A stretch of DNA of 64,000 bases. It comes from a bacterium. Its GTDB lineage: Bacteria > Patescibacteriota > Minisyncoccia > Phycocordibacterales > UBA2100. Below, piece after piece: positions 28,446-53,520 of this stretch. The DNA is taken from contig RFQR01000005.1 of the NCBI GenBank assembly GCA_009924895.1, positions 3,710-67,709 of the forward strand, written 5' to 3'. The translations under genes were made by a program, and so were the position numbers. The notes under the pieces are model-generated. The model made no database searches. It worked only from the letters and a program-made list of their open reading frames with translations, and had not been told where the DNA came from. Position 1 is the stretch's first letter. Each line of letters opens with the position of its first letter.

Positions 28446-28513
28446 ACCACTTATGGTATCAGAGGAGACACCCGCCACGAAGTACTTGCATGGATGCAAA
28501 AATTGTTTTCTTA

Positions 28514-28536
28514 TTGTGCAAGTCTGACTTGCACAA
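28514..28536. repeat. REP-like 23-bp palindrome TTGTGCAAGTCTGACTTGCACAA (copy A, upstream of trpS)
   Basis: Identical palindrome copies flank the RayT-like transposase gene at 41283 and 42065. Confidence 0.7.
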
Positions 28537-28672
28537 ACGAGAGCTTGCTGGATTTGTACTAGCAGGTACTATCAGAAGTATTACTAGCTAATACTTTTTT
28601 GAGTTTATATCTAAATGAGCGTGTGTCCCTACTCTGCCTGACGGCAGACGGGCTACGAGGAAGAGGGCCCAA

Positions 28673-28971
28673 CCCTAATTTTTAGGATAGTGTTGCAAAA
28701 TGTATGCGGTGTACGTAATCCAGCACTCTCGAGATAGAAGTCTGTATGTTGATTATACCAATAATCTCAAAACAAGACTGTCTCAACATAATGCGCGCGA
28801 AAATATCTCAACAAATAGAACGGAAGGTACTTGGAAGTATGTCTATGTTGAATTATATCGTTCTGAAAAAGATGCGCGCACCAGAGAGAAGAAGTTAAAA
28901 CACCACGGCACAGCAAAACATAAACTGTTTGAAAGAATAAGAGACAGTTGTTTTGAATCCTAAAAATTAGG
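28673..28971. repeat. pair of inverted 14-bp palindromic repeats (CCCTAATTTTTAGGA at 28673-28687; TCCTAAAAATTAGG at 28958-28971) bracketing the GIY-YIG gene
   Basis: Read directly. The right copy overlaps the stop codon. Confidence 0.6.
28700..28963 (+). CDS. GIY-YIG nuclease superfamily protein (UPF0213-like, stand-alone 87 aa)
   Basis: N-terminal YAVYVIQ...LYVDYT GIY-YIG motif followed by a conserved R and a later E/N region. Confidence 0.75.
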   Translation: MYAVYVIQHSRDRSLYVDYTNNLKTRLSQHNARENISTNRTEGTWKYVYVELYRSEKDARTREKKLKHHGTAKHKLFERIRDSCFES

Positions 28972-29138
28972 CCTGGGAATCGGACCCCTAAAACACGTAC
29001 GTGTTCGGGAGTATCTGCGGGAACCCTCTGGTTGTACTTTCAACCATAAATTACTTTTCAAATCGCTTGGGAAACTGGGCAGACAAAGAAAGTAATACAA
29101 AGTACTCATCAATCATATTTGATCTGGTAGCCCCAGTG

Positions 29139-29168: not shown

Positions 29169-30917
29169 ATGTGTGGCATTTTTGGGTATGTCGGTTCCTC
29201 AGAAAAGGGACCTCAGTTAGTGCAAGAAGGTTTACAGAGACTCGAATATCGTGGTTATGACAGTTGGGGTGTCGGAGCTCTTGCGGGCGGAAGTATTAAT
29301 GTTTACAAAAAAACAGGCATTGTCTTCCGTGAGGCACTTCCCCTTCCTGTTGCAAATCGTGCGGTGGGTCATACACGCTGGGCAACGCACGGCGCTGTCA
29401 CGGATGCAAACGCACATCCGCATATGGCATCAGACAATTCTTTTATCCTCTGTCACAACGGGATTGTTGAAAACGCGGACGCCCTCAAGCAAAAATTACA
29501 AAAATATGCGTTCGTCTCGCAAACAGATACTGAAGTAATTGTTCATCTCGTTGAAGAGTATGCGAAAAAAGTTTCGCTTCAAGAAGCGGTACGCCGCGCG
29601 TTTAAGGAGCTCGCTGGGCGCAACACGGTTATTGTGCTTTCCCGCTCTGGTGATGTGTACGCAGTGCGCAACGGATCGCCCTTGGTTGTTGGTACGAATA
29701 AACGAGGGGAATACTTCTTCTCTTCAGATTCACTTTCACTCGGATCGCACGCAGAGAACATACTCGTTGTTGAAAATGGTCAGATGGTGGTTTGCTCGAA
29801 TGACGCACTTGCACTCTCGGTGGTGGCGACGGGAAAAAAAGCTACGCAAAAGTGGGAGGCATATCGCGCTCCTTCTACTGTTGCAGACAAAGGGTCGTAT
29901 CCACATTACATGATTAAGGAAATTCATGATTCCGCTGCTGCGGTATTGGAAGTCTTGAAAGATAAGACTAACTTTGCGCCATTGGTGAGTGCCATTAAAA
30001 AAGCACGAACGGTGTATTGCATTGGTTCAGGCACGGCAGGTGTCGCAGCGCAGCAGATTGCATTTTACTTACGCTCTATTGCAGGTGTGCGTGCAGTGCA
30101 CTTGATTGGTGGCGAAGCGAGTGAATATGCTGATCTTATCGGTAAAAGTGACCTCTGCATTGCGCCATCACAAAGTGGTGAGACAGCAGATGTGCTTGAA
30201 GTGTTAGAGAAGGCACAAAAGCGCGGAGCGAAAATTGCATCGTACGTAAACATGTACGGAAGCATGATGACGCGCATGTCTGACTTTCCGTTTATGGCAA
30301 ATGCTGGTCCCGAAATCTGCGTAATGTCGACAAAAATATTCACTTCACAAATTGCGTGGGGGTATATGCTTGCCCACCGTGTTGCAGGTACGGCGTCACG
30401 AGGTATACGAGACATCCGTGCTCTTGTCACGGGTATGTATAGGTACCTCGCGGATACTGACTCCCAAAAGCAGATTCAAGAATTTGCAAAAGAGGCAGCG
30501 CAGATGCCCCACCTATTTCTCATGGCAAAAGGGCAAAACGCAGCGATTATCCGTGAAGGCATGGTGAAGATTATTGAAGGGTCCTACGTGCACGCTCACG
30601 CAATTCCTTCGGGTGATTTGAAGCACTATGCTATTACGCTGATGGAAAAAGGCACGCCCGTAATCGCACTTGTTTCAGATGATGACGTGCGAACTGATGT
30701 AGAAAATGCAGTTCATGAAGTGACTGCGCGTGGAGCGCGCGTGGTTACGATTGGAGCTGAAGATGATGCGCTACTACGTGTGCCAAGAGTCGGAGGCGCA
30801 GCGGGTGCTGTGCTGAATGTACTACCGCTTCAGCTGCTCGCCTATCATATGGCTGTTGCGCGAGGAAACAATGTCGACAAACCGCGCAATATTGCGAAGA
30901 GTGTGACCGTCAAATAA
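29169..30917 (+). CDS. glmS: glutamine--fructose-6-phosphate aminotransferase (isomerizing)
   Basis: N-terminal MCGIFGY (Ntn Cys), two SIS domains and a C-terminal ...VTVK tail. 582 aa. Confidence 0.9.
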   Translation: MCGIFGYVGSSEKGPQLVQEGLQRLEYRGYDSWGVGALAGGSINVYKKTGIVFREALPLPVANRAVGHTRWATHGAVTDANAHPHMASDNSFILCHNGIVENADALKQKLQKYAFVSQTDTEVIVHLVEEYAKKVSLQEAVRRAFKELAGRNTVIVLSRSGDVYAVRNGSPLVVGTNKRGEYFFSSDSLSLGSHAENILVVENGQMVVCSNDALALSVVATGKKATQKWEAYRAPSTVADKGSYPHYMIKEIHDSAAAVLEVLKDKTNFAPLVSAIKKARTVYCIGSGTAGVAAQQIAFYLRSIAGVRAVHLIGGEASEYADLIGKSDLCIAPSQSGETADVLEVLEKAQKRGAKIASYVNMYGSMMTRMSDFPFMANAGPEICVMSTKIFTSQIAWGYMLAHRVAGTASRGIRDIRALVTGMYRYLADTDSQKQIQEFAKEAAQMPHLFLMAKGQNAAIIREGMVKIIEGSYVHAHAIPSGDLKHYAITLMEKGTPVIALVSDDDVRTDVENAVHEVTARGARVVTIGAEDDALLRVPRVGGAAGAVLNVLPLQLLAYHMAVARGNNVDKPRNIAKSVTVK

Positions 30918-41230: not shown

Positions 41231-41282
41231 ACACTTTAGATTAAAATAAGTAAGTAGTAACTAGTATACGCCCGATTTCTTT

Positions 41283-42087
41283 TTGTGCAAGTCAGACTTG
41301 CACAATTAAAATACTTTTTTATTATATGTCAATAGCTATTCTAATAAACTCCTCATCATCATCAAGTTCGCCCGAAAGGAAGCTTTGTGCTCGCGCATGA
41401 AGATCACGCATCGTTGGCATAATCTCTTGTATTGCGGCATGATCAACGATGGAGCCTCGCCTATTACCTGAATAGTCGCGCAAGCTTGCAAACGGGTACT
41501 GAAGAGCCCACTCCCACGCCGCAGCAAATTCTTTGCGAGCCCTCTGTATTCCCCCATCGTACAGCTCAAAAGGATTTTTTACTTGTATGTACGTAGAAAG
41601 ATGCTGAAGGTACTCATCATCTTCTACGGTTCGTGCCTTGTATGCGCCTTGGAATAATGTCCCATTCTCCTCGTATTTTGTGTTGTAGTAGAGCGCCATA
41701 CTGGTGCAAAGCCTCTGCATGTACCGCGCGATTCCATTCTCAGTATTTTCACGCAGGAGTAAATGGAAGTGGTTGTCCATAAGGCAAAATGCAAGTATCG
41801 AAACGTATGGTTTTGCCTCTGGCCAATGCCCGGGGCGTCGATATCCAAAGCGAATATCTTCGGGACTCACGTCCCTCTCCCAGTTCCGAGGCACATTTTC
41901 ATCGTTGAGGTAGCGAAGTAGCTTTAAAAAACGCCATCGATCTGCTTCATCTCGAACAATAGGCATGCCACGTGTCCCCCGTTTTAAGACGTGTACGTAT
42001 GATCCAACCGAAAACGGCTCTTTTCTCATAGCTTTTTGACACAATGCTATCAGGTGTATTGTAATTGTGCAAGTCTGACTTGCACAA
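41283..42087. mobile_element. REPtron-like unit: RayT/IS200-like HUH tyrosine transposase gene flanked by inverted copies of a 23-bp REP palindrome
   Basis: The palindrome TTGTGCAAGTC(A/T)GACTTGCACAA sits at 41283-41305 and 42065-42087 in opposite orientation around CDS 41322..42044. A third copy lies at 28514. Confidence 0.6.
41322..42044 (-). CDS. rayT: REP-associated tyrosine transposase (RayT / TnpA_REP, IS200-like Y1 HUH family)
   Basis: HUH motif MDNHFHLLL and a catalytic Tyr motif YIQVKNP. 240 aa. Confidence 0.65.
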   Translation of the reverse strand: MCQKAMRKEPFSVGSYVHVLKRGTRGMPIVRDEADRWRFLKLLRYLNDENVPRNWERDVSPEDIRFGYRRPGHWPEAKPYVSILAFCLMDNHFHLLLRENTENGIARYMQRLCTSMALYYNTKYEENGTLFQGAYKARTVEDDEYLQHLSTYIQVKNPFELYDGGIQRARKEFAAAWEWALQYPFASLRDYSGNRRGSIVDHAAIQEIMPTMRDLHARAQSFLSGELDDDEEFIRIAIDI

Positions 42088-42147
42088 AAAAAGTGGGTTT
42101 TGGGGTGAAAGCGTGGTGTGCTGTGGGTGCTAGCGGAAGCACGGTGA

Positions 42148-50190: not shown

Positions 50191-51162
50191 CTATTTATCG
50201 CCTCGCAGTGTAAGACCCATGTTTGAGAGTGCGCGCTTGATGTCCTGAAGACCTTTTTGTCCCAAGCCTTCAATAGAGAGTAGGTCATCTTCGCGCTTAC
50301 GGACCAAGCCACCGACCGTGCGAATTGAGGCATTATCAAGTGCCTCCTCAACGCGTGTCGGAAGTTTGAGTTCGGTAATGCGTGTTTTTAGTATCTCAGC
50401 ATCTGCTGGGTGCTTGTCTGCGAGAGCGTCTTCGTCATCAGTGCTCTTTGATTCAGGAATAACGATTTCTTCTTCTTTGAAACCAACAACCGCTTTGAGC
50501 TGGTGGATCATTGTCTCGATCGAGCGCTCGAGCGCTTCACGAGGAGAGAGAGTGCCGTCAGTTTCAATAAGAATTTTGAGGCGGTTGAAGTCGGTGCGAT
50601 CACCAACGCGCATGTTTTCTACTTCGTAGTTAACGCGTCGAATAGGAGAGAAAATAGCGTCAAGTGCAATCGTACCGATTTCTACACGCTTTTTCTGATG
50701 CGCCTCTTTTGGAACGTAGCCAAGACCGCGCTCAGCGTTAATCTCGACCTCAAGCGATATCTTACCAGTGATGCTTGCGATGTGCTGTTCAGGATTCAGG
50801 ACTTCTACTTGACCAGGGATTTTCAAGTCAGCAGCTGTTACTTCTTTCGGGCCTTTTACCGAGAGCGTTATGACCTGCGCCTCGTCAGTTGCAATTTTGA
50901 GACGAACACGGCGCAGGTTCAAGATCATCGTAACGACGTCTTCTTTCACACCTTCAATGGTAGAAAATTCATGTGCAACGCCAGGGATTGAGACGTGGGT
51001 GATTGCGGAGCCAGGAAGAGACGAGAGAATAATGCGGCGGAGTGAGTTACCCAAGGTATAACCATACCCGGGGTAGAGACCGTCGATTTCATAGGTTCCC
51101 GCGCGCTCGCTTTCCGAGACGACGCGTGGCTTACTTGGCAGTGCAATGTGATAATCAGACAT
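50191..51162 (-). CDS. rpoA: DNA-directed RNA polymerase alpha subunit
   Basis: 323 aa, N-terminal dimerisation domain and alpha-CTD. Alpha-operon context. Confidence 0.9.
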   Translation of the reverse strand: MSDYHIALPSKPRVVSESERAGTYEIDGLYPGYGYTLGNSLRRIILSSLPGSAITHVSIPGVAHEFSTIEGVKEDVVTMILNLRRVRLKIATDEAQVITLSVKGPKEVTAADLKIPGQVEVLNPEQHIASITGKISLEVEINAERGLGYVPKEAHQKKRVEIGTIALDAIFSPIRRVNYEVENMRVGDRTDFNRLKILIETDGTLSPREALERSIETMIHQLKAVVGFKEEEIVIPESKSTDDEDALADKHPADAEILKTRITELKLPTRVEEALDNASIRTVGGLVRKREDDLLSIEGLGQKGLQDIKRALSNMGLTLRGDK

Positions 51163-51203: not shown

Positions 51204-51812
51204 CTATCTGCTATAAAATTCAAATAGTGTTGAATAATTAAAGCTTCCTTCTCCACGGATAAATTCCGGAAGGCCGGTTACTTTAATTTTCATGAGCGGA
51301 AAATCAACGTGAAGCCACTTGGGAAGAGTCTTTTTCGGAGTGATCTCGTCGGTCAAGGGAGCGTAGAGCGTGCTTCCTCGGTTGTTCTCTCGAACAAGTA
51401 CGGTGTCCCCCTTCTTGACCGAAAAGGACGGGACATTAACACGGCGACCATTTACGGTGAAATGCCCATGTGAGACTGCCTGGCGCGCAGCGCGGCGCGT
51501 CGAAGCAAAGCCCGCGTGGTAAATTACGCTATCGAGGCGTGACTCAAGCGCGCCATGGAGCGCTTGTGAAGGGTCTTTTGCCCCCATCGATGCCTCTGCA
51601 TACTTAGAAAGCTGGCTTTCAGAGAGGCCAAACGAAAAGCGAATACGCTGCTTTTCGAGAAGTTGGCGACCATAATCCGATCCCCCGCGTCCTCCGCGTT
51701 TTGCTTTCTTTGCGCGAGCGTCAGAGAGCGCAAACTTTTGTGTTTGGAGCTGCTCAAAAATAGCAGGACCAAGGCGTTTGCCAATTTTGTACTTTGATTT
51801 GATGGGAAGCAT
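51204..51812 (-). CDS. rpsD: 30S ribosomal protein S4
   Basis: 202 aa, S4 N-terminus and C-terminal S4 RNA-binding domain. Confidence 0.9.
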   Translation of the reverse strand: MLPIKSKYKIGKRLGPAIFEQLQTQKFALSDARAKKAKRGGRGGSDYGRQLLEKQRIRFSFGLSESQLSKYAEASMGAKDPSQALHGALESRLDSVIYHAGFASTRRAARQAVSHGHFTVNGRRVNVPSFSVKKGDTVLVRENNRGSTLYAPLTDEITPKKTLPKWLHVDFPLMKIKVTGLPEFIRGEGSFNYSTLFEFYSR

Positions 51813-51983
51813 GTTAGAAATTCTTAGCGAGTAACACGAGCTTAGAAGTTCTTACACCCCGCTCTAATTTTACTGAGCTAGTGGTTGCCGAAATCTGTAC
51901 TGTTAACTCGCGTTGCATCATATACTAATAATAGTGTTCTGTAAAATTAGTGCGGGGTAAGTGTCCGCTTCGCTTCCCTTAAT
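51813..51983 (-). repeat. structured inter-cistronic spacer R1 (171 nt, rpsK-rpsD), member of a three-copy paralogous family
   Basis: Conserved ends (on plus strand GTTAGAnnTTCTTAGCGAG next to the downstream start, and TGTTCTGTAAAATTAGTGCGGGGTAAGTGT...CCCTTAA next to the upstream stop). Long-range pairing CTTACACCCCGC..TAATTTTA with TAAAATTAGTGCGGGGTAAG. Confidence 0.7.
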
Positions 51984-52418
51984 TTAGATACGTCGTGGCT
52001 TAGGAGGACGCGGACCATTGTGTGGCACCGGAGTGTCATCAGAAATCTTGATAATATCAACGCCTTTTGATGCAAAACCGCGAAGAGCTGACTCCCTGCC
52101 AGCACCAACGCCGCGGATAGTCACCGCTACTTCCTTTATGCCAATAATCGCAGCTTTTTCACCAACAAGTTCACCCACCTTTGCTGCTGCAAATGGTGTA
52201 CCCTTTTTAGCGCCGTTAAAACCGAGTGCTCCTGAGGATGACCATGCAACTACGCCGCCTTTGTCATCGGTCAGTGAGACGAGAGTGTTGTTATAGGTTG
52301 CCTGAACGAACAAGTGTCCGATCGCAATGTTGCGTTTAGCAACACGCGCCAAAGAGCGAGACTTGAGTCCCTGATCAACGGTTCCGCCACTTTTTCGTAT
52401 GATTCGTTTTTTTCCCAT
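51984..52418 (-). CDS. rpsK: 30S ribosomal protein S11
   Basis: Conserved C-terminal ...DDTPVPHNGPRPPKPRRI. 144 aa. Confidence 0.9.
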   Translation of the reverse strand: MGKKRIIRKSGGTVDQGLKSRSLARVAKRNIAIGHLFVQATYNNTLVSLTDDKGGVVAWSSSGALGFNGAKKGTPFAAAKVGELVGEKAAIIGIKEVAVTIRGVGAGRESALRGFASKGVDIIKISDDTPVPHNGPRPPKPRRI

Positions 52419-52592
52419 TGTGTTAGAAGCTCTTAACGAGCGAAGCGAGTTTAGAGATTCTTACATCCCTCCCCAATTTTACTCGGTCAGTACTTGCAAA
52501 AATCTACATCTTTAACTCGCGCAATATTGTATAGCAAAAAAATCAGTTTGTAAAATTGGCGAGGGAAAGATACTCAATCCCCGCTCTCGTAA
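52419..52592 (-). repeat. structured inter-cistronic spacer R2 (174 nt, rpsM-rpsK), a divergent member of the same family
   Basis: Shares the GTTAGAAGCTCTTAACGAGCGAAGCGAG..TTCTTACA..CCCCAATTTTACT and ..TTTGTAAAATTGGCGAGGG..CCCCGCTCTC blocks. Confidence 0.6.
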
Positions 52593-52976
52593 TCATGTCT
52601 TTTCAAGCTTACGACGGCCTGAAAGCATGGTCTTACGAACGTTTCCTCGAACGGTGCGCGAATTCGTTTTGGTTCCTTGACCTCGCGCTGGAAGGCGCTT
52701 TGCATGGCGCGAGCCACGATAGGACTTGATGTCTTTCAGGCGGCGCACGTTTGCAGAAATTTGTCGTCGAAGCTCACCCTCAAGAGTGAATGCCTCTACG
52801 GTCTCGCGGAGAGCTGCCTCCTCTTTTGCAGTGAGGTCCTTGGGGCGTTTTCCACCGTCGATACTAAGTCCTGCGAGGACTTCCTGAGCGCGAGGACGAC
52901 CAACGCCATAAATAGTCGTAAGACCTATGTCGAGGCGTTTTTCATCGGGTACGGTTATTCCAGCAATACGTAGCAT
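52593..52976 (-). CDS. rpsM: 30S ribosomal protein S13
   Basis: N-terminal MLRIAGITVPDEKRLDIGLTTIYGVGRPRAQEVLAG. 127 aa. Confidence 0.9.
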   Translation of the reverse strand: MLRIAGITVPDEKRLDIGLTTIYGVGRPRAQEVLAGLSIDGGKRPKDLTAKEEAALRETVEAFTLEGELRRQISANVRRLKDIKSYRGSRHAKRLPARGQGTKTNSRTVRGNVRKTMLSGRRKLEKT

Positions 52977-53145
52977 GTTAGAGGTTCTTAGCGAGTATTT
53001 GCGAGCTTAGAAGCTCTTACACCCCGCACTAATTTCAGCGGACTCAATGTAAGATATGCTTTTTTCTGCTCGTTGGACATCATATGCTAAAAGTGTTGTT
53101 CTGTAAAATGTAGTGCGGGGTAAGTGTTCGCTTCGCTCCCTTAAA
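52977..53145 (-). repeat. structured inter-cistronic spacer R3 (169 nt, rpmJ-rpsM), closest paralog of R1
   Basis: GTTAGAGGTTCTTAGCGAG...CTTACACCCCGCACTAATTTCAGCGG ... TGTTCTGTAAAATGTAGTGCGGGGTAAGTGTTCGCTTCGCTCCCTTAAATTAG. Same long-range helix as R1. Confidence 0.7.
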
Positions 53146-53259
53146 TTAGCCCTGGCGCTGTTTATGGCGTGGGTTTTCGCAAATAACACGAAGCTTGCCA
53201 CGACGTTTTACTGTCGAGCAATGCATGCAAATTTTCTTAACGGATGCTTTTACTTTCAT
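53146..53259 (-). CDS. rpmJ: 50S ribosomal protein L36 (37 aa, below ORF-track cutoff)
   Basis: Manual translation: [37 protein letters not shown], with the C-x2-C...C-x4-H zinc ribbon. Confidence 0.85.
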
Positions 53260-53313: not shown

Positions 53314-53520
53314 TTATACGCGGCGAGTGATACGTGCTCGTCCTCCGTAGGGGTCGAGTATCATTTCAACGGTGTCGCCGACTAGTACTTTTATCTTGTG
53401 AAGTCGCATCTTGCCCGCAAGATACGCGAGCACGAGTTCTCCTGAATCGAGTTTGACTCGAAACAGAGTGTTGGGAAGCGCCTCTTCGACGATCCCTTTC
53501 GCAACTTCGGCTTGTGACAT
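53314..53520 (-). CDS. infA: translation initiation factor IF-1
   Basis: 68 aa, S1-like OB fold (GIVEEALPNTLFRVKLDSGELVLAYLAGKMR). Confidence 0.9.
   Translation of the reverse strand: MSQAEVAKGIVEEALPNTLFRVKLDSGELVLAYLAGKMRLHKIKVLVGDTVEMILDPYGGRARITRRV

Follow-up and report, generated by a model that had tools for sequence, protein, structure and literature searches.

Palindromic repeats filling the gaps between ribosomal protein genes in Candidatus Kaiserbacteria, and their probable relation to elements that encode a GIY-YIG nuclease

The stretch of DNA analysed here, called the window throughout, is 64 kb of contig RFQR01000005.1 (assembly GCA_009924895.1), and on its minus strand it carries a ribosomal protein (r-protein) alpha operon in which three successive gene junctions are occupied by copies of one palindromic element. 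The copies, S1, S2 and S3, each span the whole gap from a stop codon to the next ATG. By their sequence they almost certainly belong to a repeat family of Candidatus Kaiserbacteria and related Paceibacteria (Patescibacteria, the candidate phyla radiation or CPR), and we consider them probable non-autonomous members of a family of palindromic mobile elements, the full-length representatives of which encode a stand-alone GIY-YIG nuclease. Genes were assigned from the list of open reading frames (ORFs) and Pfam labels, and element copies from the ORFs, alignment and a family hidden Markov model (HMM), as follows:

53314-53520, minus strand: infA
53146-53259, minus strand: rpmJ
52977-53145, minus strand: S1, element copy between rpmJ and rpsM, 169 nt (HMM E 4e-32)
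52593-52976, minus strand: rpsM
52419-52592, minus strand: S2, diverged element copy between rpsM and rpsK, 174 nt
51984-52418, minus strand: rpsK
51813-51983, minus strand: S3, element copy between rpsK and rpsD, 171 nt
51204-51812, minus strand: rpsD
50191-51162, minus strand: rpoA

From rpoA onward the minus strand continues with rplQ, rplM and rpsI, assigned in the same way, and the closest matches of RpsK are to metagenome-assembled genomes (MAGs) of Candidatus Kaiserbacteria and Paceibacterota.

An earlier note on this DNA had described these junctions as filled from stop to start by non-coding elements of 169-174 nt, and the coordinates agree. It had also taken the first and third copies to be close and the second diverged, which is borne out by pairwise identities of 81.5% for S1-S3, 71% for S2-S3 and 67% for S1-S2; the mean column identity of the three-way alignment is 79%. 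The conserved terminal blocks it reported are equally real. The block CTCGYTAAGARNNTCTAAC has three perfect matches in the 64 kb, directly 5' of the ATGs (3 nt off in S2), against a chance expectation of 0.36 even with 3 mismatches permitted, and a second 3' block, TGTAAGARNNTCTAARCTCG, occurs only three times against 0.16 expected. In S2 three extra bases, ACA, separate the end of the element from the start codon. The sequences quoted in the note are present but were read from the plus strand, which is antisense to the genes. The long-range helix that it proposed is found in all three copies, by folding and as the inverted repeats I6 and I13, and S1-S3 fold more stably than shuffled sequences (z = -2.65, -3.78 and -1.77). 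The only ORFs within S1-S3, of 31 and 35 aa, are not common to all three copies.

We built the family HMM from S1, S2 and S3 and searched the junctions from infA to rpsI in 80 species-level relatives. This homology search, one of the checks that the note had proposed, found homologues in 13 of the 80 species, always in sense orientation, at infA-rpmJ, rpmJ-rpsM, rpsM-rpsK, rpsK-rpsD, rpsD-rpoA, rpoA-rplQ and rplM-rpsI. A scan of metagenome contigs seeded with a single 3' block, GGRTGTAAGANNTNCTAARCTCG, gave at least 118 loci; viral contigs gave no match to this block. Across all loci collected, from metagenomes and relatives together, at least 213 element copies were resolved. Among the matches listed, all 213 copies lie in sense orientation relative to the downstream gene; where the 3' end is complete (186 copies), an ORF starts no more than 10 nt away in 176 cases and the copy abuts the ATG exactly in 135; and a same-strand ORF ends within 15 nt upstream of 65 of the 77 full-length copies, so that these 65 sit between cistrons. 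At two loci (L096 295-409 and L172 841-977) divergent genes are separated by two copies placed back to back, one in each orientation and each facing its own gene.

The genes that follow the element are diverse. The 117 non-redundant downstream proteins fall into at least 102 Pfam families, with at least 35 r-proteins counted from the families listed and, besides these, FtsX, SSB, SecY, FtsZ, MetK, NusB, type II/IV secretion ATPases and pilus genes. This breadth excludes an r-protein-specific regulator, and together with the lack of conservation at orthologous junctions it speaks against the suggestion in the note that the spacers are cis-regulatory RNAs for individual r-protein cistrons. Copies are locally dense: 3-9 kb contigs carry up to 5-6 of them (L102, L087), and on these two contigs, as in the window, the clusters lie inside r-protein operons.

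The architecture of the element was derived from an alignment (A2) of 66 non-redundant full copies. Read in the sense direction, the order is stop codon, P1, P2 5' arm, apex, P2 3' arm, GTGTAAGA, P4, AAC and ATG. P1 is an AT-rich stem of 8-9 bp with the loop (A/T)(A/T)GAGCGAAGCGA(C/A)T. P2 is a long hairpin of 18-25 bp, with a 5' arm such as TTAACCCAGCACCAATTTTGA and an apex of 4 to about 270 nt, and P4 consists of two mutually pairing TAAGAnnnTCTAA boxes around the loop GCTCGCTTCGCTCGC. The P4 loop carries TCGCTTCGCTC, the inverse complement of the 11-nt P1 loop motif GAGCGAAGCGA. A kissing loop or outer helix (P0) between P1 and P4 was considered; only its GCGA/TCGY half pairs consistently, with little covariation, so we treat the two sequences as an inverted motif near both ends of the element. 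The inverted repeats are strong but sub-terminal, as the outermost bases are not inverted repeats. With each P2 5' arm located by reverse-complementing the 3' arm, apex lengths fall into classes of 4, 9-16, 25-34, 54-81, 90-109 and 256-270 nt, of which the 54-81 nt class is the main one and includes S1-S3. Three plain hairpins make up the minimal members, in which hardly any unpaired sequence is conserved.

In S1-S3 both ends of the element are kept and the apex is non-coding and 65-70 nt long. The subfamily of S1 and S3, to which L094, L133, L194 and L073 also belong, keeps the 5' motif and lacks the P1 stem. The parts of the three copies are:

53126-53140, minus strand: S1 5' motif GGGAGCGAAGCGAAC, matching the conserved P1 loop, P1 stem absent (family alignment)
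53105-53121, minus strand: S1 P2 5' arm ACCCCGCACTACATTTT, pairing with 53021-53035 (fold and P2 covariation)
53021-53035, minus strand: S1 P2 3' arm AAATTAGTGCGGGGT (fold and P2 covariation)
52980-53017, minus strand: S1 P4 module, with AAC and ATG next (P4 pair counts)
53009-53017, minus strand: S1 P4 box 1 AGAGCTTCT, pairing with box 2 AGAACCTCT at 52980-52988 around the loop AAGCTCGCAAATACTCGCTA
52573-52589, minus strand: S2 equivalent of the 5' motif, diverged (family alignment)
52550-52566, minus strand: S2 P2 5' arm TCCCTCGCCAATTTTAC, pairing with 52466-52482 (I13: 17 nt, 94% complementary)
52466-52482, minus strand: S2 P2 3' arm GTAAAATTGGGGAGGGA (I13)
52425-52461, minus strand: S2 P4 equivalent
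51963-51978, minus strand: S3 equivalent of the 5' motif (family alignment)
51941-51958, minus strand: S3 P2 5' arm ACCCCGCACTAATTTTAC, pairing with 51856-51873 (I6: 21 nt, 90% complementary)
51856-51873, minus strand: S3 P2 3' arm GTAAAATTAGAGCGGGGT (I6)
51816-51852, minus strand: S3 P4 equivalent

Pairing in the 66-copy alignment is accompanied by covariation, another check that the note had called for. In P1, pairing reaches 87%, a percentage lowered by an alignment that is one position off in one subfamily, and all 8 pairs have changes on both sides; in the P2 core it reaches 95% and 11 of 12 pairs covary; in P4 it reaches 85% and 6 of 9 pairs covary. The overall covariation score, 0.362, compares with 0.135 in shuffles (none of 500 reaches 0.362) and with at most 0.115 when partners are slid, shuffling and sliding being controls without a phylogeny model. 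Helices under selection in RNA are usually clearly enriched in G·U. Here G·T and A·C mismatches in the stems number 23 against 18, 16 against 19 and 6 against 13, about equal in every helix, and for this reason we do not claim selected RNA helices. The inverted repeats look like a property of the DNA or like young copies that are decaying neutrally.

The longest apex class links the family to an enzyme. All six copies with an apex of 256-270 nt encode an ORF of 86-92 aa that starts about 8 nt past the P2 5' arm and in several copies ends at the TAA of the invariant GTGTAAGA, and all six match PF01541 (GIY-YIG) with E values of about 1e-14 to 1e-15 and 54-57 bits against a cut-off of 22.6. A tblastn search added four further ORF-bearing loci, making 10 metagenome copies in all, and a protein-homologue search added three more ORF-bearing elements. 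The nuclease ORF, 86-95 aa long, is stand-alone, lies inside the P2 apex and runs in the same direction as the host genes. Its close homologues form 38 clusters, and those with a named source come from Kaiserbacteria, Paceibacterota or Colwellbacteria. The contigs that hold them, from NCBI Kaiserbacteria and Paceibacterota MAGs, share the frame P1-P2-ORF-P2-P4-ATG: GCA_016186695.1 has the order pilin gene, P1, P2 arm, GIY-YIG, P2 arm, P4, rpmG; seven other contigs have an ORF-bearing element between ssb and rpsR; and a Colwellbacteria MAG has a variant of the frame. In the alignment of these family members (S1-S3 have no such ORF) the residues Y5, Y16, R26, H30, R62 and E63 are invariant, and the catalytic motifs look intact.

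ORF-bearing members have P1, the P2 arms and P4 in common with the ORF-less copies, and each of the P2-arm subfamilies CCCGCCCAAAT, CCCTGTTAAAT and CCCAGCACCTT contains members of both kinds. As far as sequence can tell, this is the relation expected of autonomous elements and their MITE-like derivatives (MITE, miniature inverted-repeat transposable element). One clade of the nuclease precedes different genes, among them rplU, rpsR and rpmG. At one locus (L206 2885-3320) an ORF-bearing element contains, between P1 and the nuclease-flanking arm, an additional small hairpin like P2, and its mismatched flanking arms suggest nested or recombinant elements. We also considered whether the apex of S1-S3 is what remains of the nuclease ORF. 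A single match turned up, a run of 12 identical nt, ATGCAACGCGAG, shared by the S3 apex and the segment of the ORF that codes for AMQRE (z = 4.6, uncorrected for the 27 comparisons made), and it is a hint only.

The window itself holds a nuclease gene in a similar setting, outside the alpha operon:

28668-28977, plus strand: separate element of related architecture, with an 87-aa GIY-YIG ORF at 28700-28963 (PF01541, 50.8 bits; tblastn)
28668-28688 and 28957-28977: 21-nt inverted repeats (I5), 268 nt apart, around the ORF

The 3' end of this element overlaps the 5' edge of a borderline glmS ribozyme match at 28929-29106 (40 bits; gathering score 37), which lies ahead of glmS at 29169-30917.

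The distribution of the family is patchy. The spacing in the window is unusual, as the note had said: in the 80 related species the junctions from infA to rpsI mostly measure 1-30 nt, with inserts of 80-290 nt sporadic at any of them, and where some species have a filled junction, most have an empty one at the orthologous place. In one genome (L069) the copies at infA-rpmJ and rpsM-rpsK share 97% identity. Remnants of 40 nt (L072, rpsK-rpsD) and 29 nt (L071, rpmJ-rpsM) retain the first ~17 and last ~20 nt, for example aaattgttatgagcgaa|atcattcgctaagaatctctaac, so that internal deletion leaves the ends in place. A multi-copy family with inverted-repeat arms, patchy junctions, near-identical copies and nuclease-bearing relatives is in keeping with the first role suggested in the note, that of inserted MITE-like elements. 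Long palindromic spacers are not peculiar to this family: among the relatives (L006-L085, infA to rpsI), 34 other spacers of at least 80 nt are strongly palindromic and belong to other families with low-complexity arms such as CTTCTAGCTTCTAG...CTAGAAGCTAG, CCGAAT...ATTCGG and TTTTCAATTTT...AAATTGAAAA. These likewise fill stop-to-start gaps, and at least one insert of some family is present in 26 of 81 loci.

We therefore regard S1-S3, which keep the ends of the nuclease-bearing full-length members around a non-coding apex, as MITE-like non-autonomous derivatives of them, and we hold this to be the probable explanation. We lean slightly towards the GIY-YIG enzyme as the mobilising activity. The nuclease would break DNA and so start the spread of the element, and host repair would then copy the element into new or empty sites in a homing-like manner, with the inverted end motifs and the P2 arms as the likely recognition features. 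Whole-spacer replacement (described below) and local clustering would fit such break-and-copy repair, by homing or gene conversion, better than random cut-and-paste. Constant sense orientation and the lack of a terminator-like site anywhere inside S1-S3 suggest that the element is co-transcribed with the operon. Its 3' end would take over the native leader up to the ATG and would then have to supply a workable context for translation initiation, possibly a promoter as well; with sense orientation, no terminator and a leader of its own, insertion into essential r-protein operons could be tolerated.

Several points weigh against this explanation. The nuclease proteins consist of the catalytic domain only and have no DNA-binding domain, and to our knowledge GIY-YIG enzymes are not known as transposases. 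S1-S3 lack the ORF and are tied to the nuclease solely through their family membership; no ORF-bearing member with the S1-S3 arm sequence CCCCGCACTAATTTTAC was present among the copies sampled, and the arms of the nuclease-bearing element at 28668-28977 differ from those of S1-S3. The nuclease gene could instead be a parasite, homing into a repeat that was there before it. In about 74 kb of the window organism (the window and ~10 kb beyond its right end) the only element copies are S1-S3, all adjacent, and this scarcity and adjacency are unlike the outcome of a randomly inserting element. At rpsD-rpoA in three relatives (L033, L052, L070) the element replaces the usual spacer of ~75 nt and is not added to it, which is unlike simple cut-and-paste insertion, and a comparison of filled with empty junctions revealed no recognisable target-site duplication (TA, TAA or ATG). 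Finally, that P4 is conserved and that the element abuts so strictly on the ATG points to some selected role in expression. In other relatives without the element (L024, L027, L036, L049, L051, L059) the start of the rpsD-rpoA spacer, TGGTATA(C/G)TG...GCGTTTT, is conserved and looks like an extended -10 promoter for rpoA; in the three relatives just named the element stands in its place.

An expression role leads to the strongest rival, which overlaps our explanation: the element would be a host-useful mobile promoter or leader cassette, comparable to Neisseria REP2, with the GIY-YIG gene as a secondary parasite. The earlier note had marked a -10 candidate in each copy, and this proves to be part of a fuller match, TTTACA-N17-TAyrAT, on the sense strand:

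53079-53107, minus strand: S1 promoter-like site TTTACA-N17-TATGAT, in the apex (10/12 consensus positions)
52526-52554, minus strand: S2 promoter-like site, with TACAAT (10/12)
51917-51945, minus strand: S3 promoter-like site (10/12)

The -35 hexamer of the site overlaps the P2 5' arm. Over the family, promoter-like matches number 50 in sense against 18 in antisense and about 20 in shuffles, so that a promoter in the element is possible. Constant orientation, ends that coincide with the ATG and the replacement of native leaders, including the conserved rpsD-rpoA spacer, all suit a cassette of this kind. The position of the site is not conserved, however: it lies either in P1 (TAGAAA-N18-TATAAT, the canonical form, 150-160 nt upstream) or, as in S1-S3, in the apex (100-110 nt upstream), depending on the subfamily, and AT-rich palindromes mimic promoter hexamers. 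The idea of internal promoters in the note thus gains consensus-like sites in all three copies and a family-wide sense enrichment, but not a fixed position. Most related species manage with short junctions that lack the element, and copies decay to remnants, both of which count against usefulness to the host. No Shine-Dalgarno sequence stands next to the ATG in the family. A Shine-Dalgarno reading of AAGGAG after the stop codon, in the P1 loop, was rejected, as half of the family reads TATGAG there and the motif is thus not conserved. On balance we think the cassette rather unlikely.

A structured intercistronic RNA device, either a processing site (for example for RNase III acting on P2) or 'punctuation' that couples stop and start, we consider improbable. 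It would account for a gap filled from stop codon to ATG with hairpins along its whole length, for the strong covariation and for folds that beat shuffles, and a P2 duplex of 18-25 bp could suit RNase III. It is at odds with G·U and A·C mismatches that are equally common in all helices, with a patchy distribution that orthologous junctions do not share, with an apex whose length ranges over 4-270 nt and which has room for a nuclease gene, and with the half-supported P1-P4 loop-loop pairing. The Rfam search that the note had proposed was also negative: none of 4227 covariance models, at gathering and at permissive thresholds, matched the window spacers or canonical copies, and what the permissive thresholds let through was noise from generic long hairpins (microRNA precursors), on both strands and with scores well under threshold.

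The ribozyme-like role named in the note, a self-cleaving or otherwise catalytic RNA that would release monocistronic or leaderless mRNAs, is very improbable. An end exactly at the ATG and two conserved loop motifs would be in its favour, but these two hairpin-loop motifs are the only conserved unpaired sequence, the minimal members are plain hairpins, the mismatch pattern is not RNA-like, and no Rfam ribozyme matched at any threshold tried. An r-protein autoregulatory leader, mimicking an S4, S13 or S11 site as does the E. coli alpha-operon pseudoknot at the ribosome-binding site (RBS), is suggested by the location and by a match to Alpha_RBS (RF00140) near the rpsM start, but at 14.7 bits this match is far under the gathering score of 38, no other r-protein leader family of Rfam matched, most related alpha operons lack the element, and the range of downstream families effectively refutes it. 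An assembly artefact through collapsed or misjoined repeats, which the note had named as a refuting case, is itself refuted, because S1-S3 occur with identical sequence and arrangement in contigs of five separate sequencing runs (SRR8075959, SRR31802061, SRR24319182, SRR31802134, SRR31802131), and homologues are found in many independent MAGs and metagenomes.

Consistent with the remark in the note that no described family matches, we found no prior description in Rfam 15 or in the literature searched, the coverage of which was incomplete, so that one possibly exists. The nearest known things in behaviour appear to be the Neisseria REP2 and Borrelia plasmid inverted repeats (IR), of ~100-150 bp, which lie immediately upstream of unrelated genes, supply a promoter, an RBS and the ATG, and form stem-loops from inverted repeats within them (Delihas 2011, PMC3184786). 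The Kaiserbacteria element likewise lies directly 5' of unrelated genes, a likeness of behaviour and not of homology, as there is no sequence relation. REP2 has a recognisable RBS, whereas the Kaiserbacteria element has none next to the ATG, and REP2 is not reported to fill stop-to-start gaps in r-protein operons and has no known enzyme-encoding version.

Correia-type MITEs and mobile promoters also come close. Putative mobile promoters (Matus-Garcia et al. 2012, PMC3488235) are stretches of 50-100 nt that recur with high similarity in front of non-homologous genes, in one genome or in several. The concept is the same, with a promoter that is only a candidate here; that catalogue is based on sequence identity in the complete genomes of 2012, with no structure, enzyme link or CPR genomes. 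Correia elements (CREE), ERIC, RUP and Nezha are intergenic, multi-copy, ~100-170 bp long and have inverted-repeat arms, and CREE and other MITEs are often 5' of genes and co-transcribed, some of them with promoters (PMC3184786). The Kaiserbacteria element is similarly small, multi-copy, armed with inverted repeats and placed 5' of genes. Correia elements differ in having 26-bp terminal repeats, a TA duplication and insertion in both orientations, whereas here no duplication was found at the junctions compared, orientation is strictly sense and the end meets the ATG; in place of a DDE transposase, the putative autonomous partner carries a gene for a GIY-YIG nuclease.

With homing genes the likeness lies in the nuclease. 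In the seg genes of T4-like phages and in group I intron loops, a GIY-YIG gene stands between conserved genes or in a hairpin apex, is transcribed with its neighbours and is patchy among relatives, as homing produces. The nuclease gene described here also sits in a hairpin apex between genes and is patchily distributed. Seg and I-TevI-type enzymes, however, have ~200-250 aa, with a DNA-binding domain and one cognate site, whereas the proteins here have 86-95 aa, and their carrier occurs at many sites per genome with abundant ORF-less copies and no intron core. IS200/IS605 elements with PATEs, and REP/REPIN-RAYT systems, which are moved by a Y1 HUH transposase, carry hairpins close to both ends, have a strand-specific orientation and come with small non-autonomous derivatives, all of which recur in the Kaiserbacteria element. 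The window contains a Y1_Tnp gene of its own, but the hairpin repeat that flanks it, TTGTGCAAGTCTGACTTGCACAA, is unrelated to the S1-S3 family. Taken together, the family is unlike all of the compared systems in its minimal nuclease, strict sense orientation, stop-to-ATG fit and abundant ORF-less copies.

The Y1 locus and one other repeat structure in the window are recorded here in their own right:

41322-42044, minus strand: 240-aa ORF with an IS200-like Y1 transposase domain (PF01797, 41.7 bits), between two copies of the hairpin repeat TTGTGCAAGTC(T/A)GACTTGCACAA; the region 41273-42088 could be a system of IS200/IS605 or REP/RAYT type
28504-28537: solitary third copy of this hairpin, ~160 nt upstream of the GIY-YIG element at 28668-28977
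1189-1260: tRNA-Pro within nested inverted repeats (1174-1196/1251-1273, 23 nt, 100% complementary; 1037-1058/1298-1319)
1049-1087: 39-nt, 95% identical copy of the 5' half of tRNA-Pro, not called as a tRNA

We offer tentatively that the family could be an unrecognised class of bacterial mobile element, whose sole enzyme would be a minimal GIY-YIG nuclease of ~90 aa in the apex of a long hairpin, and which would spread, with abundant ORF-less derivatives, into stop-to-start gaps 5' of the start codons of transcribed genes, being built for read-through and a usable start context. The family ties a MITE-like repeat to a stand-alone GIY-YIG nuclease and follows an unusual site rule, sense orientation with an end at the ATG; we know of no insertion-sequence family that mobilises by such a nuclease. 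If the nuclease drives the spread, DNA would have a further, new way of moving, and the family would be a source of very small nucleases that are possibly guided by structure. Expression signals, if the element supplies them, would bear on how translation starts without a Shine-Dalgarno sequence in these organisms. In practice, such repeats will break assemblies and mislead predictions of operons and leaders, and they can pass for regulatory RNAs. Patescibacteria are regarded as extremely streamlined, and yet this lineage tolerates repeated inserts of 110-290 bp, sometimes several in a row, inside its most essential operons.

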